From Aureispira sp. (GTDB lineage Bacteria; Bacteroidota; Bacteroidia; Chitinophagales; Saprospiraceae): a DNA stretch of 29,968 nucleotides. Positions 12,801-15,962 of this stretch are shown piece after piece. The first letter of the stretch is position 1, and each line of letters opens with the position of its first letter. Under the pieces are notes generated by a model. The model did no database searches and was not told where the DNA came from. It saw nothing but the letters and a program-made list of their open reading frames with translations. The position numbers and the translations under genes are program-made. The stretch is from assembly GCA_024222455.1 (NCBI GenBank), contig JAAEPD010000521.1:1-29968 (forward strand). The letters run 5' to 3'.

Positions 12801-15800
12801 CTAAGCCTTAGCTTTAAAGAATAACATGCCTAATAATCCCATCACACCTAATCCCAATACACTGTATAAAATCCATGAAATCCAATCTATCATAGGTTTG
12901 ATTTTGATAGGGCTAGGATCCCCAACCATAATGAAGCTACCCCAAAAGAATGGATGTGCAGAAATATCAGTAGTTTTATCTAAATAAGCTAATTTAGCAT
13001 TTCTCAATGCCTCATCTATTGATTTTTCATTAGCCAATTCTCCATATAAATTATCAATTAGAAGAGCTGTTGCTTGATCATTGATTGGCCACAAAGTCAT
13101 AATTAAACTGCTTGCTCCAGAATACATAAACCCTCGACCTAAACTAACCACACCTTCTCCCCTTTCATACTTGCCAAACCCAGTCTCACAGGCACTTAAG
13201 ACAACCAAATCTGTTTCTAACTCCAGTAAACTTAATTCATAAGCATGCAATAAATCATCCTCTGTAGAATCAGGTGTATAAGTGAATACTAAATTAGAGT
13301 ATTCTGGCCGAAAATCATCTACCCACCCATGCATGGCTAAGTGAACTACAGAATAGTTTTTCTTCTGAATCATCTTTTTGAACCTCTTTTCATTTGCTTT
13401 TTCACCCAAAAAGAAATCTCCACTATATTTATCCTTAAGCATTTCTACTTCTTTGCGAGCACCTGGCAAATCTTTGATTCCAATACGAATAGATTTTTGG
13501 TGACGATCATTGGCGATATCATTCGCCATATCATCATTATAAACCGAAGCCATTCCTAATATTTTACCATTTGTTTTTATCTCAGGTCTAGGCAAAAGCA
13601 TTAGTGATGCAGAATATTGATATGAGACTCTATACTTTTTTATAACATAAGGCAAAGCTGCAAAATCAACCATTGTATGGTCTGGTTTTTCTGTCAATAA
13701 TACATCCATAGGAATATAATTGAATAATCCATCAGGAACTATTATAAGGCGGCTAATATCCTTTTTCAAACAAGGCTCTATATATTTTGTGTAGATTCTA
13801 TGAGCATTTGTTGCAAAAATAAGATAAGCAGCTTTGGTATCTTTCATTATAAATTTCAAGTTCACCAAACTGTTTCGCAATACGGTTATAGACTCCTCAA
13901 AGGAGGGATCGACTGGAACACTATGCACCCAAACAGAATCACTATAAACACTAAAAATTAGAATTTGCTTATTTCCTACAAAAAATTCCAGCAACCCAGT
14001 TTGTCCATCCAAACTTTCCTGAACTTCCTCTAGTTTAGCTATCTTTTCTTTGTATTTTAATTCATAGTATTCTTTATAGTTTGTTTCCAAAGTGGCCTGT
14101 AGTTTAGATGATTCTCTCCTCAACTCTAACAAATCTTGCTGCACACTCTCCATTTTATCCTTTTGCTTGGCTATTTGTGCTTCAAACAGCTTTTTCTCGC
14201 TTTTTACTATCTCACGAGCCAACCTCCGCTCTTCTAGCAATAAATCTTCTGGGACATCCCCAAAAGTCCGAGCTTCCTCTGTTTTCAATGCCTCCAAAAG
14301 TAACATAGCTTTACTTTTCTCTATCAGTCGAAAAGCCTCTTCTAAATAAGTTTTATCTCCAGAAGTTTTATTCAGTTGCAAAGCTAAATCTATAGCCAAT
14401 TCATATGCAGGAATCATCCGTTGTACCAAAAACAGTTTAGAGCCTTCAGCCTTAAATCCTTTACGCATCTCATCAATTAAAATCAATGCATTTTGAATAG
14501 CAGAATATGCTCTGAGCAATGCTTTATCATTATACAGTTGCTTAGCTTTTGATTCTAATAAATCTAGCATAATTTCCTTATCAGAAACCATTACAACCTC
14601 TGGACGTTCTCCCAAATACTCACTTCCATAATCTATCATTAAGGCCGCTTTCCCTTTCTCAAAAACCTCCAAACTTTTTTCACTTTCCCCCATGTTTCCG
14701 TAGGTAGTTCCTATGTGAGAATAGCATCTAGCAACTAAGGGATGTTGCTCCCCATATAGTTTTTGGTTCTCTTTCAATGCCTTATTAAAATAACTTAAAG
14801 CCTCCTTATTAGCCTTCATTTTGGAATAATACAAACCCAAAATTCTATAGGTCTCTTCTCGCTTAAAAACCTCTTTTTTATGGATTTCTACATTGCGCAT
14901 GAGTGCCTCAAAAGCCATCTTATGACGATTGATGGAAGGCCCTACTTCTCCAATACCATTATTGAAATTAATGTAAGATCTATTGATTGCACTAATGGAT
15001 TTATCTTTAGCATATTTCAATAAATCTAATCCTTTCAAATAATAATTATAGGCTTTTTCCTCTTGTCCTTTTAGCTTAAAAAACTCTCCTAAATTAAGAT
15101 ATATGGTAGAAGCTTTATAATTGTCTTTCAGGCGCTTAGAGAAATTTAAAGCATTTTTACAATAATCTTCAGCATTATAAATATCTCCTATTTCAATATA
15201 CAGTAAACCTATGTTATTATAAAAACTCGCTACTAATATACTATCTGATCTAGAAGACATATTCTTTAGGATGGCATCTAAACCACCTATATTTTTCTCC
15301 AATGCTTTTTCATAGTTACCATTTCTATAGTATAAAGCACCATAGAGTTGCAAGACAGCTTGTATTTGTTTAGAGTTACCCGAAAGTTTTTCTCTAGCGC
15401 AATTGTACGCTTTATCTAGGTATTGTTCCATCGATACAAAATCTTGCTGATAATAACTCAACCTAGCCAACTCCCTGTTCATTTTTACAAAATCAGACCA
15501 AGATTCTACTTTTTCTGTTATTTCAACCGATTTCTCTAAATACCACTTAGCAGAATCCAGATTCCCCAAGGACATATCAATTTGACCTCTACTAGCAAAT
15601 ATTTTCGCCTTATGCAAGCTACTATCTGATAGATATTCATTCGCTATAGCTAGTCCCTCCATCAAGTTTTCTTGTACTTGTTCTGCCCTATTAGATCGTG
15701 CACAAATTGTTACTATGTTTCTCAACATATGCACTGCTTGTTCCCAACATTCTATTGTTTTGTAAGACTCTTTTGCTGCCTCCATATAAACCAAAGCACT

Positions 15801-15962
15801 GTCCAAATTACCTTGAGAAAAAGCGACCTTTCCTTGTTGGTACAAAGACTGAGCAATTATAGTATCTGGATGCACACAATCATACTGACCCACCATAGTC
15901 ATTTGGCCTAGTCCAATCCAACAAATTAGTATTGCAGTATATTTATATAAAAACTGATTCAT
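12801..15962 (-). CDS. TPR-repeat / CHAT-domain (caspase-like peptidase) protein with N- and C-terminal hydrophobic anchors
   Basis: 1053 aa. The N-terminal ~500 aa carry many TPR-like units (AxxYxxxGxxYxxxGxYxxA patterns). The C-terminal CHAT domain has a catalytic-dyad context: VVHLAMHGW (His) and LVVLSACETG (Cys). Terminal TM helix ISWILYSVLGLGVMGLLGMLFF. N-terminal hydrophobic segment YTAILICWIGLG. Confidence 0.88.
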   Translation of the reverse strand: MNQFLYKYTAILICWIGLGQMTMVGQYDCVHPDTIIAQSLYQQGKVAFSQGNLDSALVYMEAAKESYKTIECWEQAVHMLRNIVTICARSNRAEQVQENLMEGLAIANEYLSDSSLHKAKIFASRGQIDMSLGNLDSAKWYLEKSVEITEKVESWSDFVKMNRELARLSYYQQDFVSMEQYLDKAYNCAREKLSGNSKQIQAVLQLYGALYYRNGNYEKALEKNIGGLDAILKNMSSRSDSILVASFYNNIGLLYIEIGDIYNAEDYCKNALNFSKRLKDNYKASTIYLNLGEFFKLKGQEEKAYNYYLKGLDLLKYAKDKSISAINRSYINFNNGIGEVGPSINRHKMAFEALMRNVEIHKKEVFKREETYRILGLYYSKMKANKEALSYFNKALKENQKLYGEQHPLVARCYSHIGTTYGNMGESEKSLEVFEKGKAALMIDYGSEYLGERPEVVMVSDKEIMLDLLESKAKQLYNDKALLRAYSAIQNALILIDEMRKGFKAEGSKLFLVQRMIPAYELAIDLALQLNKTSGDKTYLEEAFRLIEKSKAMLLLEALKTEEARTFGDVPEDLLLEERRLAREIVKSEKKLFEAQIAKQKDKMESVQQDLLELRRESSKLQATLETNYKEYYELKYKEKIAKLEEVQESLDGQTGLLEFFVGNKQILIFSVYSDSVWVHSVPVDPSFEESITVLRNSLVNLKFIMKDTKAAYLIFATNAHRIYTKYIEPCLKKDISRLIIVPDGLFNYIPMDVLLTEKPDHTMVDFAALPYVIKKYRVSYQYSASLMLLPRPEIKTNGKILGMASVYNDDMANDIANDRHQKSIRIGIKDLPGARKEVEMLKDKYSGDFFLGEKANEKRFKKMIQKKNYSVVHLAMHGWVDDFRPEYSNLVFTYTPDSTEDDLLHAYELSLLELETDLVVLSACETGFGKYERGEGVVSLGRGFMYSGASSLIMTLWPINDQATALLIDNLYGELANEKSIDEALRNAKLAYLDKTTDISAHPFFWGSFIMVGDPSPIKIKPMIDWISWILYSVLGLGVMGLLGMLFFKAKA

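Follow-up and report, generated by a model that had tools for sequence, protein, structure and literature searches.

An annotated CHAT domain protein of Aureispira sp. is probably an exported TPR-CHAT protease tethered to the membrane at its C-terminus

Introduction

Caspase-like CHAT proteases are known as switches in the cytoplasm: separase acts in cell division and craspase in CRISPR immunity, and others are partners of gasdermin systems. A 29,968-nt stretch of Aureispira sp. (GenBank assembly GCA_024222455.1, contig JAAEPD010000521.1, positions 1 to 29,968; hereafter the window) carries on its minus strand a gene whose product joins tetratricopeptide repeats (TPR) to a CHAT domain and has a hydrophobic segment at either end. 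The locus raises the question of where such a protein resides and what it might cut there. An earlier reading, made from the letters and the open reading frames (ORFs) alone (the sequence-only reading), had it anchored in the membrane at both ends and associated it with two other genes of the window. Our analysis indicates that it is probably a free-standing cysteine protease, a TPR-CHAT protein of the separase/craspase/DdvA type that lies outside the cytoplasm and is tethered at its C-terminus. DdvA is a transmembrane anti-sigma factor of Myxococcus xanthus (PDB 8ROT/8RW5) in which an anti-sigma domain, a transmembrane (TM) helix and a periplasmic TPR-CHAT region are fused (PMC11506125).

Gene, domains and catalytic dyad

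The gene is an uninterrupted minus-strand ORF with an ATG start that encodes 1053 aa, as the sequence-only reading had stated. Its product matches the database protein P0001 over its full length with 100% identity, and that entry is annotated as "CHAT domain-containing protein [Aureispira sp.]". The domain family is thus already known, and so is the CHAT annotation of this protein. Aureispira is a marine gliding member of the Saprospiraceae (Bacteroidota), and this source is consistent with the low G+C content of the window and its many genes of the type IX secretion system (T9SS). The coding sequence and its parts, with the AlphaFold2 (AF2) model scored by the predicted local distance difference test (pLDDT), are as follows.

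12801..15962, minus strand: complete coding sequence of the 1053-aa TPR-CHAT protein, including the stop codon (12801-12803); identical to P0001
14640..15866, minus strand: TPR-like helical repeat array, residues 33-441, about 21 helices (Pfam TPR families; AF2 pLDDT mostly >85)
14013..14579, minus strand: helical scaffold and long helical hairpin, residues 462-650, joining the TPR array to CHAT (AF2 secondary structure; inside the Foldseek alignments to Csx29, separase and DdvA)
12918..14000, minus strand: CHAT caspase-like alpha/beta protease domain, residues 655-1015, Pfam match 720-1015 (Pfam, AF2, Foldseek, CHAT-region profile)
13329..13331, minus strand: codon of the catalytic His878 in HLAMHG (48/48 homologues; aligned with DdvA H862; codon position checked)
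13188..13190, minus strand: codon of the catalytic Cys925 in LSACETG (48/48 homologues; aligned with DdvA C907; codon position checked)

In a Pfam scan, CHAT (PF12770) matched residues 720-1015 with an E value of 4e-56 and 191 bits, far above the curated cut-off of 24 bits, and the match ran from position 4 to position 289 of the 289 profile positions. The same scan placed TPR_12, TPR_8, TPR_1, TPR_10, TPR_2 and TPR_MalT over residues 40-437. An AF2 model built from 48 homologues (mean pLDDT, 89.2; predicted template modelling score, 0.80) showed an N-terminal helix (2-24), about 21 TPR-like helices (33-441), a poorly ordered loop (446-454), the helical scaffold with its long hairpin (462-650), the alpha/beta CHAT domain (655-1015) and a terminal helix (1027-1052), in that order.

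When the model was searched against the PDB with Foldseek, the top groups, all at a probability of 1.00, were Csx29 (8eey_B; E = 5e-16), human separase, and DdvA (8rot/8rw5; E = 3-5e-15). These alignments covered 800-1400 columns, with template modelling scores (TM-scores) normalized to the query of only 0.22-0.43 because the domain orientations differ. When the PDB was searched by sequence, the full protein and a full-length profile matched TPR proteins only. A profile of the CHAT region alone found DdvA as the best match (E = 3.2e-7), followed by Csx29. In this alignment the LAMHG of the family falls on LATHG of DdvA and LSACETG on LAACEGG, and the HG and ACET motifs of Csx29 align as well. 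The catalytic dyad of DdvA is H862/C907 (PMC11506125). His878 and Cys925 were unchanged in all 48 aligned homologues, many of which are just 20-25% identical overall, and the surrounding motifs HLAMHG, LSACETG and GEGVxS were invariant at that same level of identity. The Pfam match, the alignment with DdvA and the invariance of the two residues confirm both the CHAT assignment and the intact His/Cys dyad that had been claimed for the protein, and the assignment is upheld by profile search from end to end.

The protein might still be a TPR scaffold or steric gate in the periplasm whose CHAT domain is not used for proteolysis, given that the proteolytic activity of family members is only presumed. 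Mutants of the DdvA dyad had no effect in unperturbed cells, and the bulky domain blocks RseP sterically (PMC11506125). However, the invariance of the dyad and of the three motifs across homologues of 20-25% identity argues for selection on catalysis, and the CHAT profile is matched end to end, which leaves a non-catalytic scaffold very improbable.

N-terminal segment

A hydropathy scan found exactly two hydrophobic segments in the protein, residues 8-19 and 1027-1049. The first passed an 11-residue window only, and no N-terminal 19-residue window exceeded 1.4. The N-terminus reads MNQFLYK-YTAILICWIGLG-QMTMVG-QYDC, with K7 as the sole basic residue of the n-region, a 12-residue h-region, and two junctions of a small residue with Gln, G19/Q20 and G25/Q26 (a slash marks the junction).

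15888..15962, minus strand: predicted Sec/signal peptidase I signal peptide, residues 1-25 (MNQFLYK-YTAILICWIGLG-QMTMVG/Q26), alternative site G19/Q20; putative cleavage (hydropathy, Q-rule, orthologue alignment)

It has been reported for the Bacteroidetes that more than half of the signal peptidase I substrates of the phylum expose Gln at +1, including predicted residents of the inner membrane (PMC5837995). The features of such Sec/signal peptidase I substrates under this Q-rule, that is, a basic n-region, an h-region of 10-15 residues, a small residue at -1 and Gln at +1, are all present here. In the orthologue alignment, VG/Q26 stands on VA/Q, SA/Q and QA/Q of other sequences, and a small residue followed by Gln lies just past the hydrophobic segment in 33 of the 39 homologues that have such an N-terminal segment. 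Among 103 close representatives, the predicted signal peptide had a median length of 19 residues and an uncharged h-run of median 13, preceded by about one K/R and ending in a small residue and Gln. Secreted proteins encoded in the window itself end their signal peptides in the same way: PorP (...SAQA/QQEP), three T9SS cargo proteins (...SSA/QVV, ...SYG/QAIV and ...LLG/QNNA), a PAP2 protein, and a DUF6794 protein (...NASA/QNTL). No conserved lipobox was present, as Cys14 lies inside the h-region and is not conserved among orthologues. The T9SS C-terminal sorting domains Por_Secre_tail and CHU_C were not found in the TPR-CHAT protein by a Pfam scan that detects both in neighbouring proteins.

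Because of the short h-region, the Q-rule site, and the sharing of this pattern with homologues and with secreted proteins of the window, the N-terminal segment is most likely a cleavable signal peptide and not a membrane anchor. Two points speak against this: the c-region of the query, with G at -1 and either M or G at -3, fits the canonical pattern less well than the AxA/Q sites of many relatives, and the N-terminus offers two candidate cleavage sites. An uncleaved signal anchor, which would staple both ends in the inner membrane and loop the body into the periplasm, would draw on the same departure from AxA at -3 and -1, on the very existence of the hydrophobic segment, and on the helix that AF2 draws through residues 2-24. 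We consider such an anchor unlikely, as the h-region spans 12 residues with no 19-residue window above 1.4, the relatives show short signal peptides with the small residue and Gln at their ends, and the same pattern occurs in window proteins that need release from the membrane (T9SS cargo and PorP). Of the proposed anchoring at both ends, the N-terminal half therefore probably falls, as far as the sequence rules for signal peptides can tell (K7, a 12-residue h-region, G/Q), and the C-terminal helix stays transmembrane.

C-terminal helix, topology and cysteine pair

The features of the C-terminus, together with a pair of cysteines near the predicted mature N-terminus, are located as follows.

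12816..12884, minus strand: C-terminal TM helix, residues 1027-1049 (WISWILYSVLGLGVMGLLGMLFF) (hydropathy 2.18; AF2 helix 1027-1052; kept in all orthologues)
12804..12815, minus strand: basic tail KAKA, predicted to be cytoplasmic (positive-inside rule)
12885..12917, minus strand: juxtamembrane linker PSPIKIKPMID, 11 residues from CHAT to the TM helix (AF2; no conserved sorting motif in orthologues)
15876..15878, minus strand: Cys29 codon, candidate disulfide partner of Cys72 (14/14 orthologues)
15747..15749, minus strand: Cys72 codon, invariant in orthologues (14/14)

The hydropathy of residues 1027-1049 peaked at 2.18 in a 19-residue window. The 23-residue helix starts with an aromatic belt (W1027, W1030 and Y1033) and is followed directly by KAKA. 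In 47 TM-bearing homologues, the eight residues past the helix held on average 3.2 K/R versus 1.1 before it, and 0.26 D/E versus 1.09. As this charge bias fits the positive-inside pattern, the tail is placed in the cytoplasm. The 19-residue window, the AF2 helix and the conservation in orthologues bear out the TM helix that the sequence-only reading had proposed at this end, and by these predictions it is a true anchor with a cytoplasmic tail.

The arrangement at the extreme C-terminus, where a basic cluster comes after a helix, also resembles the tripartite signals recognized by exosortases and rhombosortases, in which case the protein would be cut there and then either set free or fixed to the envelope. 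Genes of the exosortase family such as XrtF are present in Bacteroidota; to our knowledge, the XrtF-type exosortases of this phylum have no known substrates, a point that counts in favour of such a signal. Nevertheless, no conserved signature precedes the helix, and the 11-residue linker varies among orthologues, which argues against a sortase-type recognition motif. Sister clades lack the helix and end right past CHAT, and no C-terminal sorting-domain model was matched in an NCBIfam scan. We regard a sorting signal as highly improbable, and a stable C-terminal anchor remains the preferred reading.

Cys29 and Cys72 were both present in 14 of 14 orthologues. Among the other 34 aligned homologues, the first cysteine occurred in none and the second in three. 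The pair hints at a clade-specific disulfide near the mature N-terminus, which would fit an oxidising compartment.

Taken together, the signal peptide and the C-terminal anchor with its positive-inside tail point to a periplasmic body. In the proposed topology, a Sec signal peptide would direct export, and signal peptidase I would cut before Gln26 (or Gln20). The body of about 1000 residues, comprising the TPR array, the helical scaffold and CHAT, would then lie in the periplasm, and the helix 1027-1049 would stay in the inner membrane with the four-residue KAKA tail in the cytoplasm, a type I topology. Since just 11 residues separate CHAT from the helix, the His878/Cys925 active site would be held near the surface of the membrane, with the TPR array projecting into the periplasm, where it likely binds a partner or ligand. 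The analysis establishes the domains, the fold, a conserved dyad and, across the family, the conservation of the signal-peptide and anchor features; export, signal peptide cleavage, periplasmic location, proteolytic activity and function are inferred.

Distribution of the family

To place the protein among its relatives, one genome per species was scanned, which yielded at least 513 related loci, of which the best 80 were analysed further. These 80 were all from Bacteroidota (Saprospiraceae, Cyclobacteriaceae, Chitinophagales and Flavobacteriia), often with at least two copies per genome, and the C-terminal helix was found in 50 of their 88 CHAT genes. When 1.84 billion cluster representatives (50% identity) were searched by phmmer with the CHAT region, 100,363 matches were obtained at E <= 1e-3 and 10,418 at E <= 1e-30. 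The C-terminal helix was present in 135 of the best 150 representatives, and 110 of the 132 full-length sequences among these 150 had both a signal-peptide-like start and the helix. Because the best 150 reach only to E = 1e-77, the subfamily must be much larger than 150 clusters. Hydrophobic ends, which had been called uncommon for soluble TPR-CHAT proteins, are hence the norm among the nearest relatives. The gene is real but not unusual; it has the standard layout of a large unstudied Bacteroidota family. Should the topology be right, exported CHAT proteases tethered to the membrane would number at least in the hundreds in Bacteroidota, and likely exceed that.

Two TPR-CHAT paralogues were seen on one contig in several genomes (L009:1-2679 and 7290-10775; L011:6583-9618 and 9718-13305; L090:854-3982 and 4001-7291), back to back in L011 and L090. 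Such pairs suggest local duplication and diversification of the TPR-CHAT family.

Linkage to ECF sigma and anti-sigma genes

The ORFs of the 80 related loci were clustered, and the neighbours within three positions of the 88 CHAT genes were counted. A pair of genes for a sigma factor of the extracytoplasmic function (ECF) type and an anti-sigma factor lay within this distance of 47 of the 88. By Pfam, the linked genes encode an ECF sigma factor (Sigma70_r2/r4) and an anti-sigma protein of about 255 aa that carries a zf-HC2 anti-sigma motif at its N-terminus, a single hydrophobic segment and a TPR region at its C-terminus. In this protein the zinc finger is assigned to the cytoplasm and the TPR domain to the periplasm, with one TM helix between them. 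In 31 of 45 cases no gene lay between the anti-sigma and CHAT genes, and in 31 of 44 the sigma gene stood one position further on; the median intergenic gap was about 0 nt. Relative to the CHAT gene, the pair was co-directional, convergent or divergent depending on the locus, and it was found with both anchored and soluble versions of CHAT. Independent database gene calls showed the same sigma/anti-sigma/CHAT arrangement in Aquimarina and Psychroserpens. Examples of ECF-linked CHAT loci, taken from L012-L080 and others, are:

L012:5536-6924
L013:8064-9433
L091:2104-3458
L090:1-806

It has been proposed that the CHAT domain of DdvA clips the juxtamembrane linker of its own chain and thereby starts RseP-dependent release of the sigma factor; the activity is only a proposal, and fused DdvA-like proteins have been reported solely in Myxococcota and one Comamonas (PMC11506125). 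By analogy, the sigma/anti-sigma/CHAT arrangement looks like a two-protein (split) counterpart of DdvA. Our literature search turned up no description of CHAT proteins in Bacteroidota that are periplasmic or linked to ECF genes, and the main text of the paper that reclassified ECF sigma factors mentions neither CHAT nor TPR. The apparent extracytoplasmic nature of the subfamily and the ECF wiring of half of its sampled relatives thus appear not to have been described in the literature searched.

In a neighbour-joining tree of the C-terminal 520 residues, which is rough, carries no support values and is indicative only, the window protein grouped with L001-L009. All nine of these loci were without ECF pairs, and all but L007 passed the test for the C-terminal helix. 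In the same rough tree, the branch of L001-L009 and the window protein sits among ECF-linked branches. Small overlapping ORFs of the window at 3886..4966 were considered as a sigma/anti-sigma pair and rejected, as they had no Pfam or NCBIfam match and the first ORF is lipoprotein-like.

MVP and SIR2-CHAT genes in the window

Two further genes of the window had been associated with the TPR-CHAT gene, namely a major vault protein (MVP) gene about 1.4 kb away and a SIR2-CHAT gene that, with it, was said to make two CHAT proteases within 12 kb. The distances are correct: the MVP gene ends 1419 bp from the CHAT gene, and 12,076 bp separate position 12801 from the end of the SIR2-CHAT gene. The associations themselves were not sustained.

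The MVP gene (8874-11381, plus strand) encodes an 835-aa bacterial MVP homologue with an MVP_shoulder match (E = 4e-30) and weaker Vault_3 and Band_7 matches; a gene of the same length occupies the same relative position in L081 and L082, not in L083. None of the 80 related genome loci had an MVP relative at a distance of up to 8 kb from the CHAT gene. Among near-relative contigs (77% identity), MVP kept its convergent position in L081 and L082, and L083 had unrelated genes in its place, so that co-occurrence amounts to synteny in just two of three close contigs. Given the absence from the 80 loci and the loss in L083, we rejected MVP as a functional partner, and its adjacency is short-range synteny, not functional linkage.

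The SIR2-CHAT protein (505 aa; 23359..24876, plus strand) shares with the TPR-CHAT protein a weak local match around His and Cys (E = 0.007). Its gene overlaps the start of a gene for an nSTAND1 NTPase (585 aa), forming a module at 23359-26633 (plus strand); neither product has a signal-peptide-like start, and SIR2-CHAT gave weak PADLOC matches to the chat, ThsA, LmuA and SAVED_CHAT models. The lack of a signal peptide and the operonic position beside the NTPase gene place the two CHAT proteins in different compartments. SIR2-CHAT/nSTAND1 looks like a cytoplasmic defence-type module that is unconnected to the exported TPR-CHAT protein, and by these predictions the two do not form a pair.

These neighbours could suggest instead that the TPR-CHAT protein is a cytoplasmic effector of conflict or cell death working with MVP or with the SIR2-CHAT/nSTAND1 locus. 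Defence systems, craspase for one, do include TPR-CHAT proteins, defence-like genes are found at a distance of 7.4 kb, and MVP lies close by, also in two related contigs. Against this, the signal peptide and positive-inside anchor put the body outside the cytoplasm, MVP is missing from 80 of 80 related loci and from L083, and SIR2-CHAT and nSTAND1 do not occur in the related loci, one weak match excepted. The two CHAT proteins are barely similar, and the TPR-CHAT protein had no significant match to a defence system in PADLOC, giving just partial matches to BovA and a generic TPR model (E = 1e-6). A conflict effector is hardly credible on this evidence, and the exported, tethered protein remains the reading that we follow below.

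DUF6794 and other neighbouring genes

The gene next downstream encodes a small protein with a signal peptide, and hairpins lie on either side of the region.

12152..12709, minus strand: gene of a DUF6794 protein, 185 aa, predicted to be secreted (signal peptide ...NASA/QNTL), possible partner (Pfam DUF6794, E = 2e-28)
12087..12126, no strand: perfect 17-bp hairpin with A7/T7 flanks between the DUF6794 gene and a 204-aa ORF, likely a bidirectional terminator ending the CHAT/DUF6794 unit
16157..16188, minus strand: terminator-like hairpin past the upstream PorP/SprF gene, setting PorP/SprF apart from the CHAT gene

The DUF6794 gene stood in tandem downstream of the CHAT gene in all three near-relative contigs (L081-L083) and adjoined the CHAT orthologue divergently in L007 and L088. 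A hairpin scan found no terminator in the 91-bp gap between CHAT and DUF6794. As the only recurrent neighbour in the clade of the window protein, DUF6794 is a possible partner, a candidate named here from gene order. The structure predicted for it is a small helical domain, modelled with confidence, and structural comparison gave no informative match. The 204-aa ORF beyond the terminator (11461-12075) had no family match and is missing from L081 and L082.

Upstream, a gap of 250 bp separates the CHAT gene from the PorP/SprF gene; together with the hairpin, this puts the CHAT gene outside the T9SS cargo/PorP unit. That unit (16213-23092, minus strand) consists of a gene for a 1898-aa CHU_C protein followed by PorP/SprF, the usual pairing of cargo and PorP; it ends at the strong terminator 16157-16188 and is not conserved beside the CHAT gene in relatives. 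Copies of TAnnTTTG, the -7 motif of Bacteroidota, occur at 15997-16004 upstream of CHAT and at 12759-12766 upstream of DUF6794, but the motif is not enriched (48 copies versus 41 +/- 6 in shuffled sequences), and a generic sigma-70 promoter scan remained at chance level.

Three other genes were noted. In Saprospira grandis DSM 2844, a Cas6b gene (L006:6209-6946) lies two genes upstream of the CHAT orthologue, a proximity that is probably coincidental. In the window, an RtcB RNA ligase gene (5031-6437, minus strand) and a gene for a T9SS-secreted protein with laminin-G/concanavalin-like and PNGase F-like domains (27486-29705, plus strand) are unrelated to the CHAT finding.

Possible function

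A role in envelope signalling is the function that we tentatively favour, because half of the related genes adjoin an ECF pair and DdvA has been proposed to act as its own site-1 protease. The protein would then carry out regulated cleavage of periplasmic or juxtamembrane targets, with the TPR array binding a partner or signal. An active site near the membrane would suit the cutting of juxtamembrane segments of inner-membrane proteins or of captured periplasmic proteins. More speculatively, the family as a whole may consist of free-standing periplasmic "site-1" CHAT proteases in which the TPR part senses an envelope- or phage-derived protein signal and the active site cuts the juxtamembrane part of a partner anti-sigma factor; the Aureispira/Saprospira clade would have been uncoupled from the sigma factor and redirected to another periplasmic target, possibly DUF6794.

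Several observations pull the other way. Neither the window nor L001-L011, its 11 closest genome relatives, contained an ECF sigma/anti-sigma neighbour when scanned with profile hidden Markov models of the linked proteins (45 anti-sigma and 44 sigma). The signalling role is extrapolated from paralogues at 25-30% identity, and the protease activity of TPR-CHAT family members, DdvA included, is only proposed. Where orthologues are 40-47% identical, the conserved neighbouring genes have only housekeeping roles (nitroreductase, Leu/Phe-tRNA transferase, NDK and PriA). Adjacency to DUF6794 is not universal, since two other DUF6794 genes, from L084-L087, have no CHAT neighbour, and the DUF6794 fold gave no functional clue.

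For the window gene itself, the outcome is a corrected topology, the removal of the link to MVP and SIR2-CHAT, and one named candidate partner, DUF6794. The lead at the level of the family is worth more than this single gene. The work on DdvA left open whether CHAT starts regulated intramembrane proteolysis, because the trigger of DdvA is unknown; if the topology is true, the ECF-linked loci, about half of those examined, would offer a simple two-protein test of that question.

Comparison with known systems

Csx29 of the type III-E craspase is the best overall structural match (8eey_B, E = 5e-16), with TM-scores normalized to the target of 0.54-0.60, and it shares the order of TPR followed by CHAT as well as the dyad motifs. 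It is, however, a cytoplasmic protein of about 650-750 aa that is activated by Cas7-11 bound to target RNA, whereas the window protein is predicted to be exported; a Pfam scan found no cas genes among the window ORFs. Separase likewise has a caspase-like domain of the CHAT type behind helical repeats, and its Foldseek E values run from 1e-15 to 1e-13. It differs in being much larger, cytoplasmic or nuclear, and regulated by securin and Cdk1, and its identity to the window protein is about 10%.

The ECF-linked Bacteroidota paralogues, such as those of Aquimarina (P0016) and Psychroserpens (P0071), belong to the same family, are 25-30% identical to the window protein and share the signal peptide and the TPR-CHAT body and, in many cases, the C-terminal helix with its basic tail. 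They differ in their fixed sigma, anti-sigma and CHAT arrangement, whereas the window clade forms its own branch without the pair and with Cys29/Cys72.

DdvA is the only characterised periplasmic TPR-CHAT protein. A sequence search of the PDB with the CHAT profile puts it first (E = 3e-7, with the dyad aligned), Foldseek ranks it among the top matches, and it has a link to ECF sigma signalling that about half of the Bacteroidota relatives of the window protein share. Unlike the window protein, DdvA holds a zinc-binding anti-sigma domain, a TM helix, a long linker and TPR-CHAT in one chain with its N-terminus inside (type II), and its CHAT domain lacks three helices, whereas the window protein matches the full CHAT profile. 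The window protein instead has a predicted signal peptide, a C-terminal TM helix and an 11-residue linker, and neither Pfam nor NCBIfam matched a zf-HC2-type anti-sigma domain in it. Compared with separase, craspase and DdvA, the subfamily is set apart, as judged from its predicted features, as a free-standing, signal-peptide-bearing and C-terminally anchored form of the TPR-CHAT protein.

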